Shown here in pieces: positions 2,409-19,000 of a stretch of 64,000 bases of DNA. Origin of the DNA: a virus (lineage: Duplodnaviria > Caudoviricetes); the IMG/VR virus record IMGVR_UViG_2595698524_000001, positions 128,001 to 192,000 of that record; one strand, given 5' to 3'. A model generated the notes under the pieces. It was not told where the DNA came from. It was given only the letters and a program-made list of their open reading frames with translations, and did no database searches. The position numbers and the translations under genes were made by a program. The stretch's first letter is position 1. The number at the start of each line of letters is the position of its first letter.

Positions 2409-2933
2409 CTACAGGTGCTGAACCAATTTATTCCACTCAATCGGCTTCTGCTTAATCACCGTAACCACCCCACGGGTGGGCGACCACACAGTTAAGTCCG
2501 GCTGATTACGCACATCGAAATGGAACCAACTGATGTCGGTTTCAAGGAAGTGAATGAACGGGAACTCATTCGGGTTTTGTTGGATATACGCACGAACAGC
2601 TTGCGGGGTATAGTGCTGGAAGGTTAAGTCCATCGCACCGCCGTATTTGTGCATGCTGTCAGAGCTCGCGTAAAGCTCCAGGGCGCGTTCACGGTAATTG
2701 CCGCCCTTCGGTTGCTCTTGATTGATAAAGAACTGTAGCGTGCGTAAGGAGCGCTGTGTCATGCCTTTAGAAGGCGAGTTCACAATAATCGGTCCGAACT
2801 TGTTACGTAATTGCTGTAACGTAACCATTACCAGTGGGTTGATAATGTACGCAGCGTTAGCACCACGACGTTTAATGACATCGGGCGGCATCAGCTCTTC
2901 GAGTTTAAACTGGTTGGGGTTTGGCTGAAACAT
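2409..2933 (-). CDS. Peptidase M15-type (Hedgehog/DD-peptidase fold) Zn peptidase, putative peptidoglycan hydrolase
   Basis: SMHKYGGAMDL (SxHxxGxAxD) and WFHFDVR Zn-ligand motifs. Start moved to ATG 2933 (CAGGAG RBS). Confidence 0.75.
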   Translation of the reverse strand: MFQPNPNQFKLEELMPPDVIKRRGANAAYIINPLVMVTLQQLRNKFGPIIVNSPSKGMTQRSLRTLQFFINQEQPKGGNYRERALELYASSDSMHKYGGAMDLTFQHYTPQAVRAYIQQNPNEFPFIHFLETDISWFHFDVRNQPDLTVWSPTRGVVTVIKQKPIEWNKLVQHL

Positions 2934-3597
2934 TCGTCTCTCCTGCGACTGGAATCGGGTACGTGAGGAACGCACGTTTAATGTTTAGGTAATGCACGTG
3001 AGCTTGCTGGTTGGTACGCACCATGGTCATATCTTGCGCGGGGATACCAACTGTTGGGAACTCACGAACAAACTCGTAATTGGCGTTCATGTTAAACGTG
3101 TACGCATTCGGCTTAAAGTAAATACATCCTTTGTTGTCATCAATAAACGACGTCAACCCAAAATGCTTTACTGCCAAATAAAAGGACTGTCGCGTAATCC
3201 AGTTCACGCCTAGTGCTTTCATGGCATACAAGAACATCCGGTCAGCAAAGTTCTTGTCAATCATGGCGTTCAATTTACCCGCCCCGTCGTTGTGGTAGTA
3301 ACCAATGATAGGGATTTTCTGATACAGCAAATCGTGCAACGCGGCAGCCGGGCCGTAATCACCTTCCGGTTTAAACAGAAACTGTAGCTGTGTGGGAATA
3401 GACGCTAAATCGGTTACAAACCCTTTCGGGGCAACCAAATATAAAGGCTTGTCGGCGCTCAGACCGGTTTCCTTTAAAATGACCTCGAGACGTGTCGGGT
3501 CGTCCTCATACAGACCAGCCAATGTAAAACCGAAGGTGTAGTCTTTCGTTAAGATAAACCACTGCTTATCCAAACGACAATACTCAAACTTGTCCAT
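2905..3597 (-). CDS. DUF1353-family protein
   Basis: APKGFVTDLASIP, AAALHDLLY and ADRMFLYAM are typical of the family. Start MDKFEY has an AAGGA RBS. Confidence 0.75.
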   Translation of the reverse strand: MDKFEYCRLDKQWFILTKDYTFGFTLAGLYEDDPTRLEVILKETGLSADKPLYLVAPKGFVTDLASIPTQLQFLFKPEGDYGPAAALHDLLYQKIPIIGYYHNDGAGKLNAMIDKNFADRMFLYAMKALGVNWITRQSFYLAVKHFGLTSFIDDNKGCIYFKPNAYTFNMNANYEFVREFPTVGIPAQDMTMVRTNQQAHVHYLNIKRAFLTYPIPVAGETNVSAKPQPV

Positions 3598-3645
3598 TAT
3601 GGTTATCCTTCGATTATTAAGGGGGGTCATAAAAAAAGAACAAAG

Positions 3646-3665
3646 GTGTGCCCCGAAGGGCACAC
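3646..3665 (-). terminator. Intrinsic terminator closing the radical SAM/peptide cluster
   Basis: GTGTGCCC-cgaa-GGGCACAC (UUCG loop on the minus strand) followed by a T-rich tract on the minus strand. Confidence 0.8.
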
Positions 3666-3668
3666 ACT

Positions 3669-4325
3669 TTACAGCTCAGTTACAAACGTTGCTTTTAAAC
3701 CTTTGAGAGCGGTGTAGTCTCCGTTCTCAGCAGCAATCCGCGCAGTCTGTTTAAAGTCCGTCAGCTTTTCATGCAATGCGTTGGTGCGTGCAACGATAGC
3801 TTCATTCAACGCTTTCAATTCATCCAGCGTGAAATCGAACTTCGCGTTGTTAGCATCCACCCAGTAACCCGGGCTTTGTTCAGTGCTCAGGTAACGCTGA
3901 ATAGCTGCCAGCGCCTTTTCGTCAGTTTGGTAATTGCGCCCTTTAAACTCAAGAGGAGCAACCACCGCTTCACTGTACGCCTGATTTACCCAGCTGATTA
4001 ACTCAGTCAGTAAGCCATAGCACTTGCCGCGCGTAGAAGAACGCTCTGCCTTATGCTCGGCCAAATCAACGCCCAGCACTTCAGAGACGAACTTGTGCGC
4101 CGCTTTAATGGTGAACTTCACTTCTAACGGAGAAAGACCCTGAGTTGTCAAACCTGCGCTTAACTCTTCATCAGTCATCCCGTCCAGCAGGCGGTAGTGT
4201 GCCAGGCGCGCGAGCGTAGGGTTCCACGTCGCATCACTCAGTTCACCATCGACAAACTGTCCATGACGGTCCACCAGTTTACCGCTGTTATAGAAGCGGT
4301 CCTTTATTTCGCTATTACTAAGCAT
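3669..4325 (-). CDS. DUF4376-like protein (tail-fibre-associated family)
   Basis: C-terminal FKGRNYQTDEKA...YWVDANN...FTLDELKALNEAI...H pattern. Confidence 0.65.
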   Translation of the reverse strand: MLSNSEIKDRFYNSGKLVDRHGQFVDGELSDATWNPTLARLAHYRLLDGMTDEELSAGLTTQGLSPLEVKFTIKAAHKFVSEVLGVDLAEHKAERSSTRGKCYGLLTELISWVNQAYSEAVVAPLEFKGRNYQTDEKALAAIQRYLSTEQSPGYWVDANNAKFDFTLDELKALNEAIVARTNALHEKLTDFKQTARIAAENGDYTALKGLKATFVTEL

Positions 4326-4867
4326 TCAGTTTTCCCCACGATGCCAATGTCTCTCAGCAGACCGTAGTCGAGGAATTGGTAGTCCCGGGCCAAGTCATAC
4401 TGCCAGACAAGATTGTTAACCTTTTTGTCGTCTGGGGTTTCAGTGGCCTCATTGAAGACACCAACCAAATCCCAGCACTCGAAATAGTTACACTGTTCCT
4501 GAGCATGACGAACAATCTTAATTTTGTTGTTCGGGAACGACTGCGCCAGAGCCACCAGAGAACCGATGCCCTTACCGTGTTTGGTACGATAAAGGATGGT
4601 CATCTTGGTCGCAGGCGTATCGAGGATACGCTGCTCCAGACCGGTGTTGCGCAGCTCAGCGTTAGCCAGTGAGTTATGGCCTTCTTCCACGCAGTCCAGC
4701 TCAACCATCACGTTCAGAGAATGACGGATCACCAGCTTCTTCACTGTTTCCGTGTAGTTCTCTGCTTTACACAGCAAAGACACGTCAAACAGTTTGTGCT
4801 TAGACAGGAACGCGTCAAGCAGCGTGGTATCAAGCCTCGTAAAATTGTGAATTAGCAATGACTTCAT
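4304..4867 (-). CDS. Hypothetical protein in radical SAM cluster
   Basis: 187-aa ORF overlapping both neighbours; CAGGA RBS. Confidence 0.65.
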   Translation of the reverse strand: MKSLLIHNFTRLDTTLLDAFLSKHKLFDVSLLCKAENYTETVKKLVIRHSLNVMVELDCVEEGHNSLANAELRNTGLEQRILDTPATKMTILYRTKHGKGIGSLVALAQSFPNNKIKIVRHAQEQCNYFECWDLVGVFNEATETPDDKKVNNLVWQYDLARDYQFLDYGLLRDIGIVGKTECLVIAK

Positions 4868-6188
4868 TGGTCTTTTCCTGAGATTTGTGTGCGTGAGGTT
4901 GTTCGTGCGTTACTGGTTCTGCAATTGCAGGCTTGGCCAGCTTAGGCAGTTTGTTTTCCTGCGAGGCGCGAACACGGCAGTCATAGCAGTTACAGGTCAG
5001 CTCTTTGAACTGATTACCGTAAGAACCAAAACGACGTTCCCACCACTGTGCAGTTAACAGTTTAGCCGTAGTCCAACCGCACTGACGACGTTCGCCGTGA
5101 TACTGCTTACGTGCTTCTTCTTCACCGTCGCCATTTTCATACGCGGCAGCTACGCAAGATGCACAGATGTGTTTCGCTGGGCAGCCCATACAAGCGTCTG
5201 GGTAAGACTTCCACTGAGTCTTAACTTCTTCCAGCAGTTTGCCGCCGTCGGTGTTAACGATTTCACGACCAACAAGCTTAGCAATTGCCTGACGGGTGGT
5301 TACCGTAGACATGAAGCGGTTACAGCCGTAGATGTTACGGTCGAAGCCGAGACAGGTCATGTGAACGGTCGTACCGCAGTGTGGGCGCAGACGGTCTGGG
5401 TTATAACGTACCTGATCGTCGTGCAACAGTTTTTCACGCCAGTCTGGGTTCCACAGGTCATCGACGTTCATACCGTTTGGAGTGATGTGCCCCATTTCAG
5501 CAGTCGGGTCTAAGTGCAGCCCTTTACCAATCCAGTATTCCAACACTTCAATCATCTGGTTAGAAATACCCAGCGCCATGTCACGAGGAATGATATCTTC
5601 AAATACCATGTTCCCGTAGATGGTACCACCGCCCGATTGGTCGATTAACGACTTCATGGATGCAGCGTAATGCTTGAGCGTGTCGTGGGTAAAGGTCGCT
5701 TTGATACCGAGGTCGTTAATCTTCATCGACTTCAGATAGTGATACCCTTCCAGCGCTTTCTCGTACGAGCCTTTGCGCGAGGTAGTGAAGATACGGTGTT
5801 TGTCATGCGTCTCCGGCAGACCATCAATCGATACGCCGATAGAGAGACGCTTATACCAGCGCTCGATAATAGAACGGTTCAGCGGCTTATCAAACAGCGT
5901 GCCGTTGGTGGAGATAGAGAACATGTACGGGCGGTTATCCCGCGCCGCCAGCTCTTCTGCAGTTTCGAACGCTGCAATCAGCAGCTTCGGCTGCAGGAAC
6001 GGCTCACCACCGATGATATCGATGATAGCACCATCCACACCCGGCTTACCTTTATCGCGGTCAAAGCAGGCATGGATAAAGTCAACCACGTCTTCAACGC
6101 GGTTGTTACGCGGGAACTTGCGCTCGTAGCAGTAATCGCAATCGAGGTTGCAAGACAGGTTGGTAACTATTTGGTACGTTACGTCCAT
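4830..6188 (-). CDS. Radical SAM/SPASM-domain peptide maturase
   Basis: CNLDCDYC (CxxxCxxC), GGEP, STNG, SIDG motifs. SPASM cysteines HCG...IYGCNRF...CMGCPAKHICASC...RQC. Confidence 0.9.
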   Translation of the reverse strand: MDVTYQIVTNLSCNLDCDYCYERKFPRNNRVEDVVDFIHACFDRDKGKPGVDGAIIDIIGGEPFLQPKLLIAAFETAEELAARDNRPYMFSISTNGTLFDKPLNRSIIERWYKRLSIGVSIDGLPETHDKHRIFTTSRKGSYEKALEGYHYLKSMKINDLGIKATFTHDTLKHYAASMKSLIDQSGGGTIYGNMVFEDIIPRDMALGISNQMIEVLEYWIGKGLHLDPTAEMGHITPNGMNVDDLWNPDWREKLLHDDQVRYNPDRLRPHCGTTVHMTCLGFDRNIYGCNRFMSTVTTRQAIAKLVGREIVNTDGGKLLEEVKTQWKSYPDACMGCPAKHICASCVAAAYENGDGEEEARKQYHGERRQCGWTTAKLLTAQWWERRFGSYGNQFKELTCNCYDCRVRASQENKLPKLAKPAIAEPVTHEQPHAHKSQEKTNEVIANSQFYEA

Positions 6189-6198
6189 AATGGCCGCC

Positions 6199-7074
6199 TT
6201 ATGCTTGTGGCAAATTCAGGTAGTTATGCAGATACTTGTAAGCATCCACGCCGATGATAGAGGCTATTTTATTACAGCCTGAGTCCACTAACCATTCCGT
6301 GTTCTCACGCAGCCCAATATCCCCATTCGGTTCAACCATCTTCAGCTGACCACATGCGTTACAGTTCATGTTATCGAAGAACTTCTCTAAACGCAGTACC
6401 GTCGAGTAACCGTTCGCCGCGTTCATCTCAAACATCTGGGCTTCGAGCCGTTTCCATCCGTAGATGAAGTTCAGCACGTGGTCCTGATTGAGAGGTTTCG
6501 GCATTAACTTGTCGAACGTCAGCGATAACGCCGCCAAGTTAAGATGATGCAGAGAACTGTGCAGTTGAAGGATGTCTTCGTACCAGCGAGGTTTACTCAC
6601 CATCTCACGCGTCAATACGCCCCACACAGTAACCTTTTCCAGCTCATTGATTACTTCAAAAGCCTCTTGAGCACCTTCGTCAATGAATGCACGCAGGCTA
6701 CGCTCACCACCTTCGTACGCATCGATAGACACGACGATATGGTCAAACGTTTTCAAGAACTCAAGTTGCGACAACTTGAGTTTACGACCGTTGGTGAATA
6801 GCAGGTGTTTTGCGGAAGGAGCGCCACGCCGTGCTTCTTCAACGAAGTCAACCAACTTCGAATAGGAGAGCAGCGGTTCGCCACCAGTCCACAGGAATTC
6901 CTCTACCAGAGGATTTTCTTTTATAATGTCCACCATTGCCTCTTTATGTTTTGTTTTAGAGACATCGCCCTTAGCCATGTGAGCTGCCCCTCCACAGAAG
7001 GAGCAGTTTAAGTTACACTTAGCCGTTATTGCAACGTCAATCATCGTTGCGGATGATTTAGGGGTATCGTGCAT
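6199..7074 (-). CDS. Second radical SAM protein with short Twitch-like Cys tail
   Basis: CNLNCSFC, TGGEPLL, FTNG, SIDA motifs. C-terminal CNACG...EPNGDI...GC. Confidence 0.85.
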   Translation of the reverse strand: MHDTPKSSATMIDVAITAKCNLNCSFCGGAAHMAKGDVSKTKHKEAMVDIIKENPLVEEFLWTGGEPLLSYSKLVDFVEEARRGAPSAKHLLFTNGRKLKLSQLEFLKTFDHIVVSIDAYEGGERSLRAFIDEGAQEAFEVINELEKVTVWGVLTREMVSKPRWYEDILQLHSSLHHLNLAALSLTFDKLMPKPLNQDHVLNFIYGWKRLEAQMFEMNAANGYSTVLRLEKFFDNMNCNACGQLKMVEPNGDIGLRENTEWLVDSGCNKIASIIGVDAYKYLHNYLNLPQA

Positions 7075-7999
7075 CCGGATTTTTTCCCCATTGCTTGCTC
7101 ATAAACGAGAAGAGCGGGTCATCTTTACGAACATCTTCGCCGGGAACAATGAGTTTCGGGTCATTATACGCCTGCAGGATGGCGTCTAAGATTTTATTCC
7201 GGCTATTGATTCCGTTAAGTTCTTTCAAACTTACTTCACGGCGGATGAACGAGTCCATTACATGCTGCTCTTCGTCCGAAAGGAGACCGGCCTCGTTGAC
7301 TTTACCCACCAAGAAGGTCATTACTCGGTGCAAGTCAGCTGTGGTATTCGGTTGCTCCCCGTACTCGCTTTGAATCAGGTAGTTCGTCCACGGTTTGCGC
7401 AGTCGCTTGGTAATCTCGTGTGCATCCGTAATCGCTTCCCATCTCATACTACGATGGTTCCACGTAATTTTATACGAATACGCCATGAGGTCAGCCAGCG
7501 TATCGATGCCGAGTTCTTCGTAACCATCGACCGCATAGTAGCGTTCGGTATTGAAGTAATCGTCATCTGGCACTTCATCGCAGTCAACAACGGTGTAGTA
7601 GAACGGGAAGGCTGATGGGTATTCCCAGTTCCAGCCGCGTTGAATCATCGGCTTCATGTTGTTTTCTTTAAACGATGCAAACAGCAGCTCCAGCGGTGGA
7701 GCGTAGTTAAGTACCGCATCGGTAAAGTAGTATTTGTCGTTCACTAATTTACCGACGTAGTCTGTCGTCGCACCGGTACACTTGATGATTTTCACATTCA
7801 GTGTGTCAGAGATGTTGAACTCTTCCAGTACCGTTGACTTATACAGAATGTCGCGAGGACGCAGACGTGGGAACTCAACCGGGTTCATTGCCAGCAAACG
7901 CAGACGGTCATTGACGTGGTCATTAACCGCGTCAGGTAGCCCGATGTGAATCGGGTAGTTGAATGTAGTTCGGAATGCGTAATGCGCATTACTCTTCAT
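7058..7999 (-). CDS. Hypothetical protein in radical SAM/peptide cluster
   Basis: 313-aa ORF with AAGGAG RBS, lying between the peptide genes and the rSAM genes. Confidence 0.75.
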   Translation of the reverse strand: MKSNAHYAFRTTFNYPIHIGLPDAVNDHVNDRLRLLAMNPVEFPRLRPRDILYKSTVLEEFNISDTLNVKIIKCTGATTDYVGKLVNDKYYFTDAVLNYAPPLELLFASFKENNMKPMIQRGWNWEYPSAFPFYYTVVDCDEVPDDDYFNTERYYAVDGYEELGIDTLADLMAYSYKITWNHRSMRWEAITDAHEITKRLRKPWTNYLIQSEYGEQPNTTADLHRVMTFLVGKVNEAGLLSDEEQHVMDSFIRREVSLKELNGINSRNKILDAILQAYNDPKLIVPGEDVRKDDPLFSFMSKQWGKNPDARYP

Positions 8000-8010
8000 G
8001 AAAGAACTCC

Positions 8011-8220
8011 TTACGAAGGCCAGGTCACAGCTTTCGCGCCACCTGAAGACGTCCAGCTACAACTACCATTACAACGATAGCTGCCTGCTGCAATATTGTT
8101 TAAACGATTGGAGTTATTAACGGTACCGCGGGTAGCAATGTAGTTAATCGCACTAGCGGTGGTGATATAACCCTCAATCCTCGCGAGTTGCTGTCCAACC
8201 TCGTTTAATGAAACAGCCAT
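8011..8220 (-). CDS. Short precursor-like peptide (MAVSLN leader, CNGSCSW core)
   Basis: GGGAGG RBS. Paralog of the two upstream Cys-rich peptides with only 2 Cys. Confidence 0.8.
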   Translation of the reverse strand: MAVSLNEVGQQLARIEGYITTASAINYIATRGTVNNSNRLNNIAAGSYRCNGSCSWTSSGGAKAVTWPS

Positions 8221-8232
8221 GTGACCTCCCTA

Positions 8233-8634
8233 CTACGGTCCAGAACAGCCGGAACAACCCCCAGAACATGACCCGGAACAGTTACCAGAGCATCTGCCTG
8301 AACACGTACCAGTACACGTACCAGAACACGTACCAGAACACGTGCCTGTGCAACCACCGGAACAACCACCCGCGCAACCACCTGAACAGCTCGACGAACA
8401 GCTAGAGCCACAGGTTGCACTACAGGTTCCGGTACAGCCGCCAGAACAGCCTGCGGAGCAAGTCCAGCTACACGTACCTCCGCAGTGGTAATAGTTCGCG
8501 TCATGACCTGCTAAGCGGTCTACGTTATTGGTAGTCTTGCCCGCAATGTACGATTGGACACCGGCTTCGGTTTTCAGAGCAGCGGCTTCAATGTTGTCCA
8601 GTTGGCCTTTTACAGCGTTTAATGAGACTGCCAT
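8233..8634 (-). CDS. Cys-rich CxxX-repeat precursor-like peptide (133 aa, 21 Cys)
   Basis: Likely start is MAVSLN at 8634 (GAGGGG RBS). 50-aa leader followed by repeats such as CSGG, CTGT, CSGT. Confidence 0.85.
   Translation of the reverse strand: MAVSLNAVKGQLDNIEAAALKTEAGVQSYIAGKTTNNVDRLAGHDANYYHCGGTCSWTCSAGCSGGCTGTCSATCGSSCSSSCSGGCAGGCSGGCTGTCSGTCSGTCTGTCSGRCSGNCSGSCSGGCSGCSGP
8302..8343. repeat. 12-bp tandem repeat (ACACGTACCAGW) encoding C(S/T)GT units
   Basis: About three and a half near-identical copies are directly visible. Confidence 0.7.
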
Positions 8635-8645
8635 GGTAATCCCCT

Positions 8646-9038
8646 CTATTGTGGCCCCGAACATCCGCCTGAGCAACTTCCTGAGCAGTTACCTGAACAC
8701 GCCCCACCACAACTCCTGCCACAAGCACCAGAACATGATGAAGAACACGCGCCGCCGCACGTACCCGTACAGCTACCTGAGCAACCTCCCGAGCAAGAAC
8801 TAGTACACGTGCCAGAACATGACCCGGAGCAGTTACCGGAGCAGCTGGAACAACCGTGGGAACAACCTGAAGAACAAGACCAACTACAACTACCGTTGCA
8901 GCGGATTTCTCCGGGGGACATCCCGCCTAAATTATTTGCGTTATACGCTTTTGTGGCCACCTGTCCATCAACCGAAGCGCCAGTTGCAATAGACAGTCTG
9001 GCCATACGCGCATTAACGTCATTGAGTGAAACGGCCAT
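8646..9038 (-). CDS. Cys-rich CxxX-repeat precursor-like peptide (130 aa, 21 Cys)
   Basis: AAGGA RBS. 46-aa leader followed by CNGS-CSWS-CSSG... repeats. Confidence 0.85.
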   Translation of the reverse strand: MAVSLNDVNARMARLSIATGASVDGQVATKAYNANNLGGMSPGEIRCNGSCSWSCSSGCSHGCSSCSGNCSGSCSGTCTSSCSGGCSGSCTGTCGGACSSSCSGACGRSCGGACSGNCSGSCSGGCSGPQ

Positions 9039-9093
9039 ATGCTTCCTTTAACGGGCGAACTTGACATAAAGTATCGCCCTGACGTTATAAGAG

Positions 9094-10293
9094 TTACTTG
9101 GTGCCGGCAGCAGACTGAACGTCGCCGCGGGTAGTCAAGTTGGCGTTGACGTGTACGTTGGCTTGTACGACACCACCCGTGTTCTTGTTCAGATACTGGT
9201 CGTGCGGGTTCGCCGCCGATTTGTGGGCTGCGAGGTCAGCGTTGGTTTTCGCCAATGCCTGTTCCAAGGCCGCGATGCGATTTTCGAGACCTTGGTTCGC
9301 TGTGCCCATATCCGCAATCTGCTGCTTCAGGTTATTGGTTTCCTGATTAGCGGCTGCGAGTCCAGCACGCAGGTCATTGAGCTGCTGAGTCAGCAGACCG
9401 ACTTGCGTTTCCAGAATGAGAATCTCATCCATCAGTTCCGCAATCTGTAACTGCGTTTTCTGATAGTTCTGGTCAACCGTGTTGAGCTGGGTATTCCATG
9501 TGCCGATAGAACTGACCAGCGCTGCGATTTTCTGCGCCAAGTCGGTATCGGTCGCATTGAGCGTACCGATATCTTGCAACACGGAGTTGATGCTGCTTTG
9601 CACGTTCTGAATCAACGTACGGACTTCTGACGTGGAGTACACGTCAAGTTGGCCACGCGTCACTTTGTGAACGTTGCCTTCCGCATTACGGTGCTCATCT
9701 AACGCCGCCAGCATCTCTTGACGATACGCTTTGAGCATGTTCTGAATCTGCACCATTTCCGCAGACGCGCCCAAACGAATCGCTTCGTTGAGTTTCGCCA
9801 GCAGGGTAACGATGTATTCAAAACCAAAGAAGTCGCCCACGTCACGGAACGCAGGCGCACCTGCAAACTCATCCGGCACGTTACGGAGTTCATAGAAGTC
9901 GATAGTTGGGTCATCGAGTTCCAGTGATTCAATACACTGGACGATGTTATCGACGTTCGCTGCGTACGGACCACCGACAATGTGGGCGCTGGCGGTGATG
10001 TCGGACGGTACAGCCGAGCGAGTAACAACAATAGCAGTTGCCACTTCGCGGCCACCGGTCATTTTAGTCAATGACGGATGGAGGAGAATTACTTCGTAGT
10101 CGGTACCGCGAACGAGTGGTTTATTCGGCGCGTTCACCGGAGCTAATCGAAGCGTATCAACAAAGAAAGGACCTGTTGGGAATGCAAACGCCCGGTTAAT
10201 CGTTCCTGTGCCGAGTTTAATCGGGTGAGAAACGTTGTTACCGAGGATGGTTCCGAACAGGTCCAACGGGTACTGCATTACTGCCTTACTCAT
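9094..10293 (-). CDS. Tail fibre/baseplate-associated coiled-coil protein
   Basis: N-terminal YPLDLFG domain shared with the larger fibre paralogs, GNVHKVT motif, long heptad region, C-terminal NPHDQYL...beta-repeat. Confidence 0.7.
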   Translation of the reverse strand: MSKAVMQYPLDLFGTILGNNVSHPIKLGTGTINRAFAFPTGPFFVDTLRLAPVNAPNKPLVRGTDYEVILLHPSLTKMTGGREVATAIVVTRSAVPSDITASAHIVGGPYAANVDNIVQCIESLELDDPTIDFYELRNVPDEFAGAPAFRDVGDFFGFEYIVTLLAKLNEAIRLGASAEMVQIQNMLKAYRQEMLAALDEHRNAEGNVHKVTRGQLDVYSTSEVRTLIQNVQSSINSVLQDIGTLNATDTDLAQKIAALVSSIGTWNTQLNTVDQNYQKTQLQIAELMDEILILETQVGLLTQQLNDLRAGLAAANQETNNLKQQIADMGTANQGLENRIAALEQALAKTNADLAAHKSAANPHDQYLNKNTGGVVQANVHVNANLTTRGDVQSAAGTK

Positions 10294-10320
10294 CGGAAAA
10301 CTCCTTGTGGTGAGTAAAGA

Positions 10321-10342
10321 GTGGGGAGCCGAAACTCCCCAC
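10321..10342 (-). terminator. Putative intrinsic terminator or stem-loop
   Basis: GTGGGGAG-ccgaaa-CTCCCCAC directly after the 1900-aa gene. Confidence 0.6.
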
Positions 10343-10347
10343 TTTGT

Positions 10348-13300
10348 TTACGCGCTCAGGGTGGAATCATGAATCATAACATCAAGGACAACCGCGGTAG
10401 TCGCATCGTAGTAGATGTCGATATACCGGCCTCCTGCGAAGCTACGTTCCTCCGTCCAGAACATCACTGGGGCTTTGGTAATGGCTGCAGACTGACGCAG
10501 GGCCAGCATGTAGTCTTTACCCGTAGGCACGGTCAACGTGTACAGGCCGATAGCAGCACTGCCCGGAATAGAAGCAGGGGAAGCCGGGTTGGGTAACTTA
10601 ATCGCACCTAATGACGTACTTGAGGTAGCGAGTTTCGTTGTCCCATCCTGCACTAATTCAAACGCCACATACGTCGGTGAATTACCTGGATTTTCTCTTA
10701 CGACAAGCGCCAACGAGTTGGCTTGATTCAGCAACGCCCCGGTCAGTGTAACCGTTTGCGTAGCTGATGCGTTGTACGTAGTAGTCCCCTGCAACACACC
10801 GTTCAGGTATACACTACAACCGTCGTCGCTATTCACATTCAACATTAAAGAGTTGCTTGTTGGTGTGAAAGTTGTTTTTACAGCGAACACCTCGCCCGCT
10901 GCCAACAACTGAGCATATGGGCGAATCGCTGGCGATGCTAACGGACTGCTATACGCGTTGGTCGTCTGCATTGCAGGTGGCCACAGCTTTTCAGCATTGT
11001 TAGCTAGCAACATCCACGACGCGGTTATCGCAGGCAGGCTCACACGAGTGATGTTATCGAAGTTACCGGCGAGCTGGTTCGCTGTTTCCAGCGCCGCAGC
11101 AGTGCCGTAAGTCTTCGACAAATCCGCCCCCGGACGGGTGATGTTCCAGAATCGTGCCGCGTTTTGAGATGTAGCCCCGTAGCCAAAACGACAAGTGCGG
11201 GCAAATGTCGGGGCTGCAGTGGCCAAGTCAATCTCAACGTATTTGTACGTTGCAGAGTTACGCACCTGGCTCATCGACAACGTTTTCTTCGCCGCCACGA
11301 TTTGTCGGATGTTCGTGTCACGATCACCGGTTGTTGGCAATTGTGCATGTTCAACCGCAATATACAGCATGTTACCGCGCCGTTCAGCGTAGACATGCGC
11401 ATACCACTTATTCCACCCCAGTAAATCGGTGGTCGAAGTGTCTAAGGTGGCGATCGCCCGAGAAGATGACTGTCGGTAGTTTTCCTTAACCTGTATCCGA
11501 GACTGTAAATCAAGGTGCCCCTCGATTGAGTTACCGATAGCTAAGCAAAGCGTTTGTTCGCGCCCTACCGACGAATCTTCCTTCTTCAACGCAGCCAGCA
11601 CAATCGCGATGGCATCATTATCAGTGTCGTTAGAAGTGATAACCGTGTTAAACGTGTAATCACCAACCAGTTCATCCGAAATAAACCCAACGAACGTCAC
11701 TGTGTTCAACGTACATTCAACCACATCATCCGCGTCGATATATTTCCATGCTACGAGTTCAGACTCGTTTGCAGGCTGGGCCGACGTCGAGTTGTTGTGA
11801 CTGAAACGGTACCAGCTGTTGTAGATATCCTGGAACGACGGGAATGAGAACGTGTCGATGGTACCCATGTTCTCCATGTTCGAGTAGATAGACTCGGTCA
11901 AGGTCCCGCCTGCCAGATATCCGTGCGCGTACGGGTTGTCCGCGTGCGCCAACAGAGAACCAACTCGACCCAAACGTTTCACACGGTTGATGTTGACTTC
12001 AACGATAGCGTTAGTCGACGTCACCACGTACCCGATATAGAGGCGCGTAGCAGTGTCGCTAAGCAACGTTTTGGAAACGCTGTACTCTGCCTTACCTTGT
12101 GCGTTTAACTGCACGTAGAAGTACAGTGTGGCGTTCTGGTAGTCGCTTGGGAACAACGCTTTGAAGTCAAATTGCGAGGCTGGCGTATTGTGCTCTTCCA
12201 TGTTCGCAAAGAACGGAATGTCCTGCGTAATGTAAAGAATCATCCCCTCGGCCAGCTGTGGTCCGAACAGGATCACGTTACGTGCACTGCCAGTGTTGTA
12301 ATTACGACTGTTGTTGCTAAATGCTTGACCGCCGTAATACATCCCACCAGACAAGAACGTACCAACCAGAATCTCGTTCGTTTCAGGCAGATGGACAACG
12401 TCGCTTTCGCCATAGGACGGGTTAACCATTTCTCGGTTAAACGTCCAGTTTGCCATGTTCGCATCGCATGTCAACGTGAAGGTCATGTGACCCCCGCCAC
12501 CGACAGTCGCACAATGACATTGCGCATGAGGACGGATAATCCATCCGTCACTGCGTTTAATTAAACGCAGCTGCCAGTAATCCCCTGCATTGCTGATACC
12601 CGTCCACGCGAAATCGATACGGTCTTCGTTACCAATGTGCACCGCGTTGCTGTAATCCAGCGCCAGTACGTTGTTAACGAAGGTCATTGGGATGCGGAAA
12701 TAGTAGACGTACGCATACGTGACACCGTCCGCTTCTTTCTGACCAAACATCGCCGTAGCGATACACATGTTTGTACCGCCCAAATCAAACAGGTTTAACC
12801 AGCTTGTTTTGAAGATACTCGCCGCTTGTCCCCACTTCGCCACACGGGTCGTCAGCATCGACTGGAAATCATTCCACATCGCAGCATTAACAGTCACTGT
12901 GTCGTTGTGCAGCACTGCAGAACCGTTAATGTTTTTGTAATTACTGCTCCCAGCGGAGTTAAAAGCGGCCCCGTTGAGGTAATTACTGTTGCCGTTGAAG
13001 ATGTAGGCACAGCGGGTTAACACGTTGTACGTTGACTCGTTAAACGCGGTACGGTCATTCGAAGGACCCCAACCACCATAGCCCGGGAAGTTGTAAGAGC
13101 CTGCGGTGTCGTAAGCTATCTGGGCGCAATCGCTGGTACCCAGACGGCGCATCAGCACCTTTTTAACCGTGTTACCCAGCTGCACTAAACCACGCATGCG
13201 ATGTTGGTACACTGAGCCGTACGCCCCGTTTACTGCCATCTGGACACCCATCCGCCCGGTCAGCGGATTATCCCAACGCAGCGCATCGTACAACGACTTG

Positions 13301-16050
13301 CCGTTAAGACTGATACGCACACACTGGTTGTCACTGTTACTGTTGTCGTTACCGATACAGTCAATGTAACCAGCGCGGGGTGCGGTGGAGATGATCATAT
13401 TCCCGTAGAGGAAACCGTCAGAGTTGTCGGTGTGGTAATTCCCACCATTATCGGTGACACCGTTCTCGTCGAGTTTCATCGGCAGGTAATCGTTATCCAG
13501 TACCGCAGTCTTCGCATCGAGGTCGATAACGAAAGAAATCTGCCAGCGGGTACCGAAAGCAGTTGCGGAGTTCGAAACGTGTGTACTACAGTTTCCACGC
13601 ACACGAATCTTACGACCATTACGTCCAAGCATCCAGTTGCGACGTGCAGAGTGCACCACGTTGCGCGCACCTGTCCACTTCGCAGCACCCGCATCGGTGA
13701 TGTAGTAGAGGCTGGTCGTGGCCGGGTCTTTCGTATTCAGCGCATAGGTCGCAAAACGACCCACGTTACCATCGGCGTGTTTACCGGTCAGTTTGACAGA
13801 CTGGAACTGTACGTCTGTCTTACTGAGATCGTCTTTGCTGATAGACCACAGGCACGTAAAGAACTCCGTGTTGGTCAACGTGCTCTTAATGACATAGATG
13901 TCGTTATCGATAACCATCAGATAATCATCACTCGGTGTCGGAGCGAAGTTATACTGATTGGTTGCCCGAGGGGTCGGGGAATATGTCACACGAACGATGT
14001 CGGTATGCTTCGCAGCATCCGCACTACCGTTAAACATCACCAGATAGTAACGGTCGTCTGTGCCTAAGAAGATAGCACAGTCGTCGCCACAAACCACCAC
14101 GCGTTTAAGCTCAATACCCGGATACTTCTTCGCCATCCCCGCAGGAACGTACTGTACTGCTGTGGCCACATAATTCGAGGATAGGTTATTGGAACCCGCT
14201 TCGAACTCACGGTACCAATAGAACACGCGCTGCGAATCAGCATAACCGTCCCAACCGTTACGCAGAATGTAGAGACGGTTGTCTTGTTCAATCTGCATCG
14301 CGTTAAAGTTAGCATCGATCACAGACGCTGTCCCTTCATACTGCCCCATTGTTGGGATAGGCAGGAACCCGGAATCACCGTAGTAGGTGCTGTTCGCCAC
14401 CCAGCTCGGTAGCAGGTTCAGTGCTTTGTCTTCCGCAGCATCGATATCCAGTTTTAACTGGTAACCGAGTTTGGAGACCGCCGCTTTATTAGTCGTGGCA
14501 TCCAGCACCGTATACAGATACGTTAAGCCGGAAACCGTCGGCGAGGCAGTGGGTACGTTTTGCAAATCACTGGCAGTATGCGTGTGAACCTTCAGCGCTT
14601 TGTTGGTCAGCGCATCACGGAACGGCTGATGTACAGGCTTATCGGCGGGGGCGGTGTTGTTGACTTTATCCAGACCGAAAGACGCTGCGGTCAAGTTAAT
14701 CGTCTGCGTTGCACCGAAAGACGCTCCGTTGATTTTGAACGTCTCATCAACGTAGTTATTCAGTTTCAGCAACAGGTTGTTCACCCCTTTCTGCGAGAGC
14801 GCATAATTCGGAGCAATAACCTCAACACTGTCCGTCAGACGGAACAGGCCCTCAGTCGTCAGGGTCGCTGCCGGAGGGTTAGCCGTCATGTTTAACGGAG
14901 AGGCCTGTGAACCGTTACCACCCATACGCACCGTGTCAGTCGACTTAAAGGTCGGCTGCGCGTTGGAGTTCAGAGGGGCATACAAGTACAACCCTACTGA
15001 GTCAGGAGTAATCAAGAACGCACCGTTATAAATCGGACGGACGTCTTTGGCACCGGTTGCATTACCTTTGGACGGAACGAACAGCTCATCGTAACCCGCA
15101 CGTGAGGAAACCCCAATACCGCGCTGGTTATTATCGCTGTCAGCAGCCAGTTCAATCACCGCTTCTGTTCCGGTCAGGAGAATCTTACCCGCACTAAAGC
15201 GCAGGGCGGATTTCCCGTCTTGGGTCGCGTACACCACTTCGTCATTGTTAATCGCTTTGAAACGACCGAACACCTGACCCATGGTGTCATCAATCAACGT
15301 ATCGACGATACGCTGAGAGATTTTATTCTCGACCATAATCGCTACTAACTGCGCCAGCGTCTTACTGAACGCTTTGATGGCATTCGTAGCAGCATCACCT
15401 ACACCTAACGCCCCAATTTGGGCAGGGGTGTATTTGTGCTGATGTGGCGTTTTGTGGTGCTGTAACAGTTTGTCTGCATACAGTTTGTTCGCTGCGCGAG
15501 AGAGCGCCTTAATAGCCGTATCGATTTCAGTATCAAGCTGGCCGGCTTTCTCTTCGAGCTTTAAACGGATGTTGTTGATGGCTGCCGCAACCTCATCACG
15601 CGCAATGGCCTCGTCGATATTCGTCGGCGGGTCAATAGGCTCGATGGGAATTTGGTAGCGCATCAATGCTGACCAATCGATGTTGCGTGGTTCGGTCAGG
15701 TCGGGGTTAACGAGGAACTTGCCGATATCCGATTCAGGAACGGAATAAGACGAGCCGAGCACCTGCAGCTTATAGGTAATCTCGGTTTTCGTCAGCAGCA
15801 TTATCCCGCCGAAAAGCTGGGCATTCGCGGCGTGTGCACCGGCAGAGTAATACAACGCGAGGTAATAGTCGATACCTTCAAATAACAGATTCCCCGCCGT
15901 ATCTTTAATCTCTAATCCGTTACGAAAGAAGGGTGCCTCGAAAGGCACCACTAAGTTGAAACGGTTAGGATAAGTCGACGTACTGAGGGAACCTTCCGCG
16001 ATGTTATCGGGGCTTGTACCCGTCAAATCTTCGGGATAATGTTTTCTCAT
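10348..16050 (-). CDS. Large tail fibre protein (1900 aa) with C-terminal lectin-like/PA14-like domains
   Basis: YPEDLTG N-terminus, GLDKVNNTAPADKP and HTHTAS fibre motifs, distal DTDNDAIAIV and NSDDGCSVYLNG motifs. Confidence 0.75.
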   Translation of the reverse strand: MRKHYPEDLTGTSPDNIAEGSLSTSTYPNRFNLVVPFEAPFFRNGLEIKDTAGNLLFEGIDYYLALYYSAGAHAANAQLFGGIMLLTKTEITYKLQVLGSSYSVPESDIGKFLVNPDLTEPRNIDWSALMRYQIPIEPIDPPTNIDEAIARDEVAAAINNIRLKLEEKAGQLDTEIDTAIKALSRAANKLYADKLLQHHKTPHQHKYTPAQIGALGVGDAATNAIKAFSKTLAQLVAIMVENKISQRIVDTLIDDTMGQVFGRFKAINNDEVVYATQDGKSALRFSAGKILLTGTEAVIELAADSDNNQRGIGVSSRAGYDELFVPSKGNATGAKDVRPIYNGAFLITPDSVGLYLYAPLNSNAQPTFKSTDTVRMGGNGSQASPLNMTANPPAATLTTEGLFRLTDSVEVIAPNYALSQKGVNNLLLKLNNYVDETFKINGASFGATQTINLTAASFGLDKVNNTAPADKPVHQPFRDALTNKALKVHTHTASDLQNVPTASPTVSGLTYLYTVLDATTNKAAVSKLGYQLKLDIDAAEDKALNLLPSWVANSTYYGDSGFLPIPTMGQYEGTASVIDANFNAMQIEQDNRLYILRNGWDGYADSQRVFYWYREFEAGSNNLSSNYVATAVQYVPAGMAKKYPGIELKRVVVCGDDCAIFLGTDDRYYLVMFNGSADAAKHTDIVRVTYSPTPRATNQYNFAPTPSDDYLMVIDNDIYVIKSTLTNTEFFTCLWSISKDDLSKTDVQFQSVKLTGKHADGNVGRFATYALNTKDPATTSLYYITDAGAAKWTGARNVVHSARRNWMLGRNGRKIRVRGNCSTHVSNSATAFGTRWQISFVIDLDAKTAVLDNDYLPMKLDENGVTDNGGNYHTDNSDGFLYGNMIISTAPRAGYIDCIGNDNSNSDNQCVRISLNGKSLYDALRWDNPLTGRMGVQMAVNGAYGSVYQHRMRGLVQLGNTVKKVLMRRLGTSDCAQIAYDTAGSYNFPGYGGWGPSNDRTAFNESTYNVLTRCAYIFNGNSNYLNGAAFNSAGSSNYKNINGSAVLHNDTVTVNAAMWNDFQSMLTTRVAKWGQAASIFKTSWLNLFDLGGTNMCIATAMFGQKEADGVTYAYVYYFRIPMTFVNNVLALDYSNAVHIGNEDRIDFAWTGISNAGDYWQLRLIKRSDGWIIRPHAQCHCATVGGGGHMTFTLTCDANMANWTFNREMVNPSYGESDVVHLPETNEILVGTFLSGGMYYGGQAFSNNSRNYNTGSARNVILFGPQLAEGMILYITQDIPFFANMEEHNTPASQFDFKALFPSDYQNATLYFYVQLNAQGKAEYSVSKTLLSDTATRLYIGYVVTSTNAIVEVNINRVKRLGRVGSLLAHADNPYAHGYLAGGTLTESIYSNMENMGTIDTFSFPSFQDIYNSWYRFSHNNSTSAQPANESELVAWKYIDADDVVECTLNTVTFVGFISDELVGDYTFNTVITSNDTDNDAIAIVLAALKKEDSSVGREQTLCLAIGNSIEGHLDLQSRIQVKENYRQSSSRAIATLDTSTTDLLGWNKWYAHVYAERRGNMLYIAVEHAQLPTTGDRDTNIRQIVAAKKTLSMSQVRNSATYKYVEIDLATAAPTFARTCRFGYGATSQNAARFWNITRPGADLSKTYGTAAALETANQLAGNFDNITRVSLPAITASWMLLANNAEKLWPPAMQTTNAYSSPLASPAIRPYAQLLAAGEVFAVKTTFTPTSNSLMLNVNSDDGCSVYLNGVLQGTTTYNASATQTVTLTGALLNQANSLALVVRENPGNSPTYVAFELVQDGTTKLATSSTSLGAIKLPNPASPASIPGSAAIGLYTLTVPTGKDYMLALRQSAAITKAPVMFWTEERSFAGGRYIDIYYDATTAVVLDVMIHDSTLSA

Positions 16051-16054
16051 TTAC

Positions 16055-19000
16055 TTATTCCTTTTCGAGCGCCACCTGTTGAATAGCAAACTCCCAGTTG
16101 CGCTGGGTGAGGTTCCACGGGTTTTGCATGGCAATAGTCGGGATATCACCGTATTCGGTAACGAACCAATCGGTATTGTTCGTCACAAACGTTTTGGTGC
16201 TATTGTCGTTGTACGTGATGGTAAACCGCGCTTTGACAAACGGTGTCGGCGCATTCGCAGTCGGACGACAGATAATGCTGAACACCCCTTTAGTGTCGGC
16301 GTTAGCTACAATATTGGCATTTGCCGTAAGTGTACCTGCGTTCCCCACCAAATCCGCGGCGAATACGTTCGCACCGTCAATAAGAGCCCCAATCGAACCT
16401 TGACCGGAAATCGCGACCGCTACTGACTTCGCATTCGTCAACAGGTCAGGTTTGTATGCAACCATTACAAACCCGCGACGTGAGATATAACCCAGACTGT
16501 AGGAGGACAACGACGTATCTCCAACATTGAGCATCTCATAAGCGACTTGCGGTACACGACCCTGCGTTAACAGACGCGAGGACTTCGGCCACATCGCATG
16601 CGGGACGGCATACGTGGCGCACTCATGTACAATGCCGTTAGCCTGCTCAGTAGTGATGACCTGTGTCGCCAACTCCATCGCCGCAAAGTCATTTGCACCG
16701 TAGTGCGCAGCCTTACCACGATGTAGCCCGTTCTGTTTTGCAGCATAGGCCGCTAACTCCGAACCACGGATATAGGACTGAATCAGCCCCGTATGGTAGT
16801 TCAAACGGTTCAGGTACTGTGGTGCGATAGAATGGTCGAAGAGAGACCCCATCAGACGGTAACCGGTTTTCGCTGAAGATGAATAGCCCACGAATGGACC
16901 TTCAAAGAAGCGGGACAGGTCTTGCTCGAACACCAGTGAGCAGAAACGATGTACCTCAGTACGCGTCGCATCACCCACTGCACCAATCAAGATGTTCAGT
17001 CGCTTCTCTGCCGGAATATAGCGATAACGAATCGCCAGCACCCGCGGCTTCTTCACACTAACCCCGTTGACGTGAGGTGGGAAGTTAAAGCTTGCAGCCA
17101 CATCGGTCTGTTCCTCGCGGACAAACGAAATCAAGTTCGTCCGTGGGATATCGGTAAACGGTAACGCAACCGGTTGCGGTGTGACTTCATTAACGAACGC
17201 AATCGAGGCTTGTCCGTCTGCGGGAACATCAATCGCGTACAGAGACAACACTTCATGACGACCGTTAATCGCAGTAGCTACGAACTCCAACACGCCTGAC
17301 TCGTTCGCCATGAATGAACCATCGTAGGTGACACGATTATTCGCCTGAGGGTTTGCCATGTTCTTCCAGCGATACGGAGACTGACCATCAACCCCAACCC
17401 AAACCCGTAACGGGGCAGCGGCGGCCGCGCCTTCTGCAACAACCAGCGTTCCCTGTGTACGTAATGTCATCCCTGCTGCGTCCGAGAACATGGCCACATC
17501 TGGCGCAGACGTCACTGACTTATCAGCAACACCATACGCTTCTGTGTTCTCCAGTCCAATCACTTTAACGTTAGCCGGGCTGTACTCTGGGCTGTTGATG
17601 TCCACGGTGTCGTGAGCATCCGGGTCTTCCATGTGGGTCTGCAGCTCTTTGAACTGGCCAAAGTCGATAATCTGACCGAACTGGATTGGGCCTCCCGAAG
17701 TGATAACTCCAGCATCGTTAGTATCAACGTGGCCTAAGTAAATCATCTCGGTATTAACTGCCCCTCCCGGTAGTGGAGAGCCTAACGCTTGGAAGCGTCC
17801 GCGCAGCACGTTACCGTAGATAAAGAAGCGGTTATTCTGCGCAGGTAGGTATGCACCAATTTCACCTACTGGGGTATTCGCGCTAGAGTTATAGATTAAC
17901 GAACCGCCATCCTGCACGTCGAATGCAACTGACGCGGGTTTGCTCGTGTCTTCACACAACGCACTGACCGCAATGACGTGGGTACCCGGTTCTAACCAGA
18001 ATTCTACTTCTGGGTTGTCCTGAGCATCCGCCATTAAGTTCTCGTCAATCCAGATAGAGACCTTCCCACTGGAACGAGCACGTACCTTAATCGCTTCGTC
18101 CGCGAACTTCATACGGACTTTGGCAGCAACAATCAGACCCGCCGTGCCCACTTTACCTACAGCAGTAGAGACTGCCTTTGCCTGAGGTAACGGGTTAGTC
18201 GGTTGAGTGGTATGTACAAAGCCGAGTTTCCAGCTTTTCTCTACGCCACAACCGATAGCATACCACAGGTTGGCAGGGACTTGGGTCAAATCGACCGCAC
18301 CGTCAAAAGTCCCTTCTGCTGAGTCCAGTGCGCGGGCTACGAAATAACGATACGTGGTAGTCGGGTTCAGTGTCCAACCGCTGACGTTAAACGTAGTCGC
18401 TTCTACCGTGGTGAATTCCAGCGTATCGCGGAACATTACCCCGAAGAAACGTTTGTTCAACTCAAGCAGTCGGTCGTTCAGTCCTTTCAACACTGCAGGG
18501 GCAACAGCCTGACCATCTTTCACCTCACTGTACGTGGACGCAATCTGAACAGTACCATACGCTTGACGCGTGGCCTGTCCAATTCGCAGCATTGGCCAGT
18601 CGTGTTTGTGGTTCTTTGCCACCAACGCATCAGTACGGGTTTTCTGCGGCGTAGAGAGCGGCTTGTTCAAGTCAGCCGTGTTGTCGACGGAGGCCAGATC
18701 TAAATCTGACTTATCGAGAACAATCTCTGTGCCAGACATCGGGTTGTTGTTAATGAGCACGTTCTTAGGAACCATGTCATTAAAGCCGTCATTATACGGC
18801 TTACCCGAATCCGGCGTCGCGGCCACGCCGTCAGCAACAGCGCCTGTACCAGAAACCAGTTTAACTTTACCCGGCACGGTTTTGGTGGCTTTCGGGATAT
18901 TCAACGCGCCTTCTAACGGAGAAGATGGCGTACCCTTGCCTTTGAACGTGATGTTCGTTGACTGGGCATTAAGCTGGACGTTTTCCGGGTCGCCGTTAAC

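Follow-up and report, generated by a model that had tools for sequence, protein, structure and literature searches.

Peptides with a cysteine at every fourth residue and the radical S-adenosylmethionine (radical-SAM) maturases that adjoin them are represented by the comparative-genomics families TIGR04114 and TIGR04115. A locus of this general type is found in a 64,000-nucleotide stretch of tailed-phage DNA (bases 128001–192000 of the 223,989-bp virus record IMGVR_UViG_2595698524_000001; the whole stretch is termed the window). It encodes three small paralogous proteins, termed A, B and C, and, downstream of them, two radical-SAM enzymes of 291 and 452 amino acids (aa). Comparison with proteins of other phages makes it likely, on balance, that A, B and C serve as small subunits of the distal tail fibre, carry enzyme-modified Cys arrays, and are not precursors of a released peptide.

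The resemblance to TIGR04114/TIGR04115 lies in the four-residue spacing of the Cys residues, in the scores of A and B, which are above the TIGR04114 cut-off, and in the adjoining maturase, whose alignment takes in almost the full TIGR04115 profile. The locus is unlike these families in having a second radical-SAM enzyme, a maturase that scores below cut-off, a fibre-like N-terminal segment, a position in a phage tail module, and one member (C) without the array. No experimental description of CXXX-repeat maturases was found in the literature searched.

Two other known systems show partial likeness. In the PapB/freyrasin-type ranthipeptides a thioether is formed from Cys to Asp or Glu in C-x-x-x-D/E repeats. 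PapB is the best-scoring model for the 452-aa enzyme and its target repeats have the same four-residue spacing; however, the score is below cut-off, the cores of A and B contain neither Asp nor Glu, and no genes for leader removal or export were found. In quinohemoprotein amine dehydrogenase, the radical-SAM/SPASM enzyme QhpD cross-links Cys residues in a small subunit (QhpC) that is kept in the complex. Here too the maturase is of the SPASM type and the target would be a small Cys-rich structural subunit and not a free peptide. The targets are unrelated in sequence, however, the Qhp product is a periplasmic enzyme and not a virion, and the match of the 452-aa enzyme to TIGR03906 (58.9 bits) is far below cut-off.

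The locus is also similar to distal modules of phage tail fibres. It shares with these a position at the fibre C-terminus, a segment resembling a shaft repeat, the N-A-x-x-L-x-G motif, and baseplate, fibre and chaperone genes as neighbours. In the literature searched, no fibre tip is described that has an array with Cys at every fourth residue or depends on a radical-SAM enzyme, and no paper ties Cys repeats and radical-SAM/SPASM enzymes to tail fibres. In the available portion of one article (PMC12801897), a cyanophage radical-SAM maturase appears solely as an "antibiotic synthesis gene". The components were previously known as computational families only: TIGR04114/TIGR04115, PF27846 and phrog_6085. 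The last is a PHROGs v4 family with no annotation, of which A, B and C are full-length members, and its link to fibres and to radical-SAM enzymes is shown by the present comparisons.

Proteins A, B and C and the fibre module

Protein A (130 aa, positions 8646–9038), protein B (133 aa, positions 8233–8634) and protein C (69 aa, positions 8011–8220) are all encoded on the minus strand, each with a Shine-Dalgarno-like purine run 5–10 nt upstream. An earlier interpretation made from the DNA letters alone (the sequence-only reading) had pointed to three open reading frames here that begin with MAVSLN followed by a heptad pattern. Translation bears this out: MAVSLN opens all three proteins and is followed by hydrophobic residues at a/d-type spacing. 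The start of B was placed at the ATG at 8634, which aligns with all relatives; the list of open reading frames begins this one further upstream, at a TTG.

The three proteins appear to have a common build, consisting of a shaft segment of the coiled-coil type, a junction with N-N/A-x-x-L-x-G, a Tyr residue and C-x-x-x-C-S-W, and a Cys tail. The N-terminal segment, or leader, has 46 aa in A, where it is fibre-like, 50 aa in B and 49 aa in C, and an N-N/A-x-x-L-x-G-like segment is present in each. In A and B the Cys-rich C-terminal part is 83–84 residues long and holds 21 Cys, with 19 of the 20 Cys spacings being four residues and one being three. Besides Cys, nearly all residues of the two arrays are Ser, Gly and Thr, with one Lys or Arg in each array; Asp and Glu are absent from the cores of A, B and C. 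Protein C has the same junction and the start of the array, and ends after a 20-residue tail with 2 Cys. All three match phrog_6085 over their full length (E-values of 5.3e-35 for A, 9e-38 for B and 1.6e-23 for C). Against TIGR04114, which has a cut-off of 20 bits, A (31.5 bits) and B (33.7 bits) pass, and protein C gives no match.

Alternative-frame open reading frames lie over the Cys-array DNA on both strands, e.g. at 8205–8504 (minus), 8208–8405 (plus) and 8809–9051 (plus). These come from the repetitive GC-rich codons, and the comparisons give them no support. Public gene calls do pick such frames, as seen in wrong-frame extensions in four related proteins (P0007, P0012, P0013 and P0042).

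The relationship of A, B and C to tail fibres is seen most strongly in longer proteins that end in the same module. A search with B against longer proteins gave 400 matches at E ≤ 1e-3, of which 120 were used for motif counts. Most of these 120 are bacterial proteins of about 400 aa with the JGI name "modification target Cys-rich repeat protein". The C-x-x-x-C-S-W motif occurs in 15 of the 120, and in 14 of the 15 it is preceded by [N/D]-x-x-x-[L/F]-x-G within 20 residues. Two of the 15 were set aside, one being an over-long call of a B-type gene and the other having the motif inside the array. The remaining 13 proteins are 243–568 aa long; the junction lies 146–457 residues from the start and is followed by 73–134 residues of Cys array that extend to the C-terminus.

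All 13 proteins match phrog_6085 at the C-terminus. In four of them (P0048, P0063, P0067 and P0139) the match begins at profile position 6 or 7 and so takes in nearly the whole leader. Tail, minor-tail or tail-fibre PHROGs are matched in the N-terminal region of 7 of the 13. P0048 is the clearest case: residues 1–190 match phrog_7037, "tail fiber protein" (E = 1.6e-34), and residues 178–294 match phrog_6085. At the position where the window proteins have N-N-x-x-x-L-x-G, directly before the first Cys, the long fibres read N-A-D-K-L-D-G, D-A-D-T-L-D-G, etc. The likeness to an NAD(K/T)LDG segment of phage fibre shafts, which had been pointed out from the window sequence, is therefore real. Pfam PF27846 is found on nearly all long relatives among the matches listed. 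Loci for P0064 and P0083 were sought and not found.

Because 13 longer proteins end in the whole module, leader included, and 7 of the 13 have tail or tail-fibre domains at the N-terminus, the window leader is, by alignment, homologous to the final shaft segment of such fibre proteins. In other phages the module appears to be the C-terminal end of one long fibre, and in the SPN3US/Derbicus-like jumbo phages it appears as free-standing copies encoded by three separate paralogous genes.

A profile built from 54 A, B and C leaders, each cut before the first Cys, was also compared with 1.84 billion representative proteins and gave 25 matches at E ≤ 1e-3. Nineteen of the 25 are short; eight of these were read, and all eight are members of the family. 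The other six are long proteins in which tandem repeat units align to leader positions ~4–34. One of these, P0027, has three such units (9–14 bits each), a Peptidase_S74 "chaperone of endosialidase" domain (E = 7.8e-13) and matches to tail-fibre PHROGs; two others, P0025 and P0026, match a tail-needle PHROG. With these shaft-repeat matches and the 13 long proteins, the proposal of the sequence-only reading that the leader is retained and structural, on a fibre-borne module, is well supported by comparison.

The position of the module at the extreme C-terminus of long fibres can be read in another way, and so can the Peptidase_S74 domain on P0027. Removable intramolecular chaperone domains such as Peptidase_S74 sit at the fibre C-terminus. 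The Cys-repeat proteins might accordingly serve in assembly only, where they would nucleate or chaperone fibre trimerisation and then be cleaved off or left behind, and so be absent from the virion. The tail-assembly-chaperone-like DUF1353 gene and the DUF4376 gene in the cluster would fit this role. However, two dedicated radical-SAM enzymes would be costly for a helper with only a passing role, neither the module nor the cluster yielded a protease domain, and a C-type protein with a 143-aa domain after its Cys motif (P0009, described below) suggests that the module can be internal and retained. A role in assembly only is considered rather unlikely.

The trio is conserved as a unit. A search of IMG/VR with the maturase yielded 17 related loci, all of the SPN3US/Derbicus group, and A, B and C are present in the same order in all 17 as well as in the window. 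Throughout these 18 loci the number of residues before the first Cys is 46 or 49 in A, 50 in B, and 48 or 49 in C, and the junction C-x-G-x-C-S-W/F is constant. In the 18 B orthologues all Cys columns of the array are invariant, in contrast to the variable positions in between. That three paralogues are strictly kept in 18 of 18 genomes would fit an obligate A:B:C assembly, to which C would contribute only a stub.

In 50,697 phage records, tblastn with the leaders of B and A gave 60 and 61 records, all SPN3US-like and in the same region, and no other fibres. A word-indexed protein search with the leader of B, among proteins of near length, gave 1 protein only.

In SPN3US itself the trio is at 143,190–144,220 (9192–10221 in locus L002). 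The three open reading frames are at 9829–10221, 9414–9818 and 9192–9398 of L002 on the minus strand, and Lys/Arg residues occur in their N-terminal segments. A and C are not annotated in GenBank or RefSeq, and the annotated SPN3US_0166 (111 aa) overlaps B in a different frame. Two related metagenomic phages have a 303-aa open reading frame inserted between A and B (L022, 3545–4453; L030, 3546–4454), which may be a mobile element, e.g. a homing endonuclease.

P0009 (210 aa), found with the leader profile, is a C-type protein in which the short Cys motif is followed by a 143-aa domain. Its cluster at 90% identity counts 9 members, which come from two sources and lie on contigs of at most 225 kb, and 4 of them are full length (209–210 aa). 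This fusion shows that the Cys motif can sit within a larger protein, which is more in keeping with a structural protein than with a leader-core peptide. The 143-aa domain has no match in phage records and an Atlas score of just 0.75; in scans of IMG/VR and of JGI metagenomes, matches to P0009 were confined to residues 1–68. The C-type fusions form a sub-lineage (P0009, P0030, P0032 and P0036, together with P0033 and P0034), and some assemblies have the domain as an open reading frame of its own or in a shifted frame. This could reflect indels in a run of Gly codons or assembly errors.

Radical-SAM enzymes and the cassette in other phages

The 291-aa enzyme (positions 6199–7074, minus strand) matches the radical-SAM family PF04055 (E = 8.2e-12) and has no recognisable full SPASM domain. 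The 452-aa enzyme (positions 4830–6188, minus strand) is of the radical-SAM/SPASM type and is a distant relative of the CXXX-repeat and PapB maturases. It has the CX3CX2C motif at residues 13–20 (C13, C17 and C20), and eight further Cys residues (C271, C279, C289, C333, C336, C342, C345 and C370) are invariant in four aligned orthologues. This cluster, read by eye, is SPASM-like; no SPASM model was reported for the protein. An alignment of the maturase compared with bacterial and archaeal genomes gave four partial matches, in metagenome-assembled genomes of Saccharibacteria, with no Cys-rich open reading frames nearby.

Both enzymes are found again beside the junction fibres of other phages. 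A 213-kb viral contig (L053) has a baseplate wedge gene and the gene for a junction-bearing fibre of 568 aa, after which come orthologues of both radical-SAM enzymes. The 375-aa enzyme of this contig shows 36% identity with the window 452-aa enzyme (E = 8e-70, BLASTP) and its 472-aa enzyme resembles the window 291-aa enzyme (E = 9e-9, BLASTP). A 33-kb P2-like contig (L054) encodes a baseplate wedge, a tail protein, a fibre-like protein, a 401-aa junction fibre, a radical-SAM enzyme, a 242-aa open reading frame, a radical-SAM/SPASM enzyme and the tail sheath. Its 262-aa enzyme is related to the window 291-aa enzyme (E = 7e-9), and its 398-aa SPASM enzyme to the window 452-aa enzyme (E = 2e-53).

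Looser parallels were seen in three further sets of loci. Loci L048–L052 have baseplate hub and wedge genes, a 362-aa Cys-repeat protein and a maturase that reaches 295.8 bits on TIGR04115 (in L048). Loci L031 and L032 combine a baseplate wedge and a minor-tail-like protein with a PapB-like SPASM enzyme and two C-x-x-C-repeat peptides. In loci L006 and L007, two SPASM-type enzymes accompany a tail-fibre protein, along with a 173-aa protein whose C-terminal part has a Cys repeat. The Cys-repeat genes are positioned in a tail/baseplate module in the window, L053, L054, L048 and L031, and in at least three lineages the cassette is part of a tail module. Taken at the level of sequence, the module is homologous to fibre C-termini, conserved in tail modules and co-inherited with both radical-SAM enzymes.

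Two other features of these loci may be mentioned. L007, an AT-rich viral contig, has more radical-SAM-like open reading frames (541 aa, and an open-ended 244 aa) after the tail-fibre/Cys-repeat cassette, at 12179–15068. L048 has a reverse transcriptase (phrog_1423, E = 1.8e-59) at 13516–14790, ~5.6 kb downstream of the Cys-repeat protein and maturase, which may be part of a diversity-generating retroelement near a receptor-binding region.

The enzymes call to mind a classical ribosomally synthesised and post-translationally modified peptide (RiPP). In such a system the leader of 46–50 residues would guide the radical-SAM enzymes and then be removed, and a free Cys-rich peptide would be released at lysis, for instance to chelate metal, to act as an antibacterial or to take part in host takeover. 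The scores of A and B on TIGR04114 and the adjoining CXXX-repeat/PapB-like SPASM enzyme speak for this. In addition, the AlphaFold2 (AF2) monomer model of B predicts a helical leader, with helices at positions 5–18 and 23–34, and many RiPP leaders are helical.

Against this interpretation, the same leader is internal in the 13 longer proteins, of which 7 also have tail or tail-fibre domains, the cassette is located within tail modules of at least three lineages, and protein C is nearly without a core. Moreover, no gene for a peptidase, a transporter, RiPP recognition or immunity was found by Pfam, NCBIfam and PHROGs in the 10 cluster proteins, Pfam and NCBIfam gave no match to a PqqD-like recognition domain in the cluster, and the model of the 313-aa protein encoded between the peptide and enzyme genes matches no protease fold. 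The 452-aa enzyme opens directly with its CX3CX2C motif at residue 13 and thus has no N-terminal recognition domain, although a recognition protein of a novel kind may be present. A released peptide of the classical type is accordingly judged quite improbable.

The Cys arrays might instead be unmodified tails that bind metal or iron-sulfur, with the radical-SAM enzymes acting on some other substrate, such as the giant fibres or a small molecule. Regularly spaced Cys among small residues could chelate metals, and some fibre tips, e.g. that of T4 gp37, have metal ions along their axis. However, the two enzymes accompany the Cys-repeat module in three lineages that are unlike in their other fibre genes, and the best family matches of the SPASM enzyme are peptide maturases of Cys-rich targets. 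This arrangement is highly improbable.

If A, B and C are modified fibre subunits, both neighbouring radical-SAM enzymes would act on the Cys array after translation. The likeliest chemistry would be the formation of thioether cross-links, from Cys sulfur to carbon, by the SPASM enzyme; Asp and Glu, which serve as acceptors for PapB, are excluded here, as the A and B cores contain none. The second, smaller enzyme would add a further step. The product may be a thin, covalently stiffened rod at the fibre tip that possibly holds metal. The N-terminal segment would stay on and drive trimerisation, possibly as an A:B:C heterotrimer, and this complex would probably extend the 399-aa coiled-coil protein encoded just upstream.

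Several results weigh against this picture. The absence of the Asp/Glu acceptor counts against PapB-type chemistry, and the 452-aa enzyme is below cut-off on both of the relevant models: on TIGR04115 it scores 112.9 bits (E = 2.2e-32, positions 4–336 of 359; cut-off 350), and on PapB (NF047865), its best NCBIfam model, it scores 117.6 bits (cut-off 340). The leader matches in long proteins are sums of weak repeats of about 1–17 bits each, and taken alone are suggestive only, as a shared coiled-coil-like composition could explain them. Among 202 six-frame open reading frames of the window, the leader profile found only A and B, with the window's own fibres at E > 5; among PDB sequences it gave only DARPin/ankyrin noise. 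Gene neighbourhoods were read for two of the 13 long fibres (L053 and L054). The AF2 model of B had a predicted local distance difference test (pLDDT) score of 45.7 and was not used. Fibre C-terminal modules are sometimes removed after assembly. With regard to presence in the virion, A and C are unannotated and SPN3US_0166 is misframed, so that the published virion proteomes could not list A, B or C; in this genetic model phage the products would have escaped virion proteomics.

The comparisons suggest that these phages probably modify chemically a part of their host-recognition fibres, and that a CXXX-repeat radical-SAM system may have been recruited as, or may have originated as, a tail-fibre tip. 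A broader proposal is offered tentatively: there may be a widespread, hitherto unrecognised class of fibres ending in a poly-Cys rod that two dedicated radical-SAM enzymes cross-link or load with metal, which in the SPN3US-like phages would take the form of an A:B:C heterotrimer on a gp167-like protein. RiPP-type chemistry would then serve in making a part of the virion that contacts the host. If the proposed modification is true, this would be the first radical-SAM post-translational chemistry that builds virion structure, as far as the literature was searched. It would join RiPP enzymology with phage host recognition, and it would provide the CXXX-repeat maturase family with a definite protein substrate and a biological function. 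It also suggests a new type of fibre tip to be weighed in host-range prediction and engineering.

Gene order and neighbouring genes

The window comes from an SPN3US/Derbicus-like jumbo phage, and its region at 3600–10400 has 77% identity with the Erwinia phages EarlPhillipIV and Derbicus. This region is more weakly similar to jumbo phages of Salmonella and Erwinia in the SPN3US group (44 records, with coverage of at least 80% in 5). The order of genes on the minus strand is 1340-aa protein, 1900-aa protein, 399-aa protein, A, B, C, 313-aa protein, 291-aa radical-SAM enzyme, 452-aa radical-SAM enzyme, 187-aa protein, DUF4376 and DUF1353. All cluster genes are on one strand, with the fibre candidates on one side and the DUF4376 and tail-assembly-chaperone-like genes on the other. 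There is no convincing terminator between the cluster genes, and counts from the promoter and terminator scan were no higher than those in shuffled sequence.

Four RNA-library runs were compared. In one of them, the metatranscriptomic run X15, the whole cassette (window positions 7000–10300) is covered by a 17-kb contig from a diverged relative, which is indistinguishable from carried-over DNA. Two further runs have short contigs over the 399-aa gene. These contigs do not show transcription.

The 1900-aa and 1340-aa proteins (positions 10348–20077, minus strand) are giant baseplate/tail-fibre candidates encoded directly upstream on the same strand. In two reports (PMC5694885, PMC5105663), the corresponding SPN3US proteins, gp168 for the 1900-aa and gp169 for the 1340-aa protein, are virion "baseplate/tail fiber candidates" identified by mass spectrometry.

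The 399-aa protein (positions 9094–10293, minus strand) is the counterpart of SPN3US gp167. It has coiled-coil matches and matches phrog_2163, "virion structural protein" (E = 5.7e-100), over profile positions 5–380 of 574; its counterparts in SPN3US and EarlPhillipIV have the same annotation. This protein is a candidate for the proximal part of the fibre. The sequence-only reading had called it a coiled-coil fibre paralogue. The coiled-coil and structural part of that description holds, and there is a weak relationship with the 1340-aa protein: residues 59–233 resemble residues 54–245 of the latter (encoded at 16055–20077; E = 0.001, 20% identity), which suggests an attachment domain common to the two fibre paralogues. 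No significant similarity was found between the 399-aa and 1900-aa proteins. Taken as a whole, the earlier interpretation is partly supported.

The 313-aa protein (positions 7058–7999, minus strand) belongs to phrog_8030 (E = 1.2e-141). Its AF2 model has a pLDDT of 84 and a predicted template modelling (pTM) score of 0.78. No match was found in Pfam, PDB sequences or Atlas, the best PDB fold had an E-value of 0.076, and a search of BFVD with the model gave only its own orthologue. BFVD entries named "tail fiber assembly protein" were at E = 0.14–0.35, which is not significant.

On the other side of the enzyme genes is a conserved 187-aa protein (positions 4304–4867, minus strand; phrog_7988, E = 2.9e-86) with no Pfam family. 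It is followed by a 218-aa protein (positions 3669–4325, minus strand) of phrog_8169, in which the DUF4376-like gene expected at the end of the cluster was recognised (PF14301, E = 9.4e-12). The last gene encodes a 252-aa DUF1353 protein (positions 2905–3663, minus strand; PF07087, E = 2.8e-19), which also matches phrog_1158, "tail assembly chaperone" (E = 1.8e-63).

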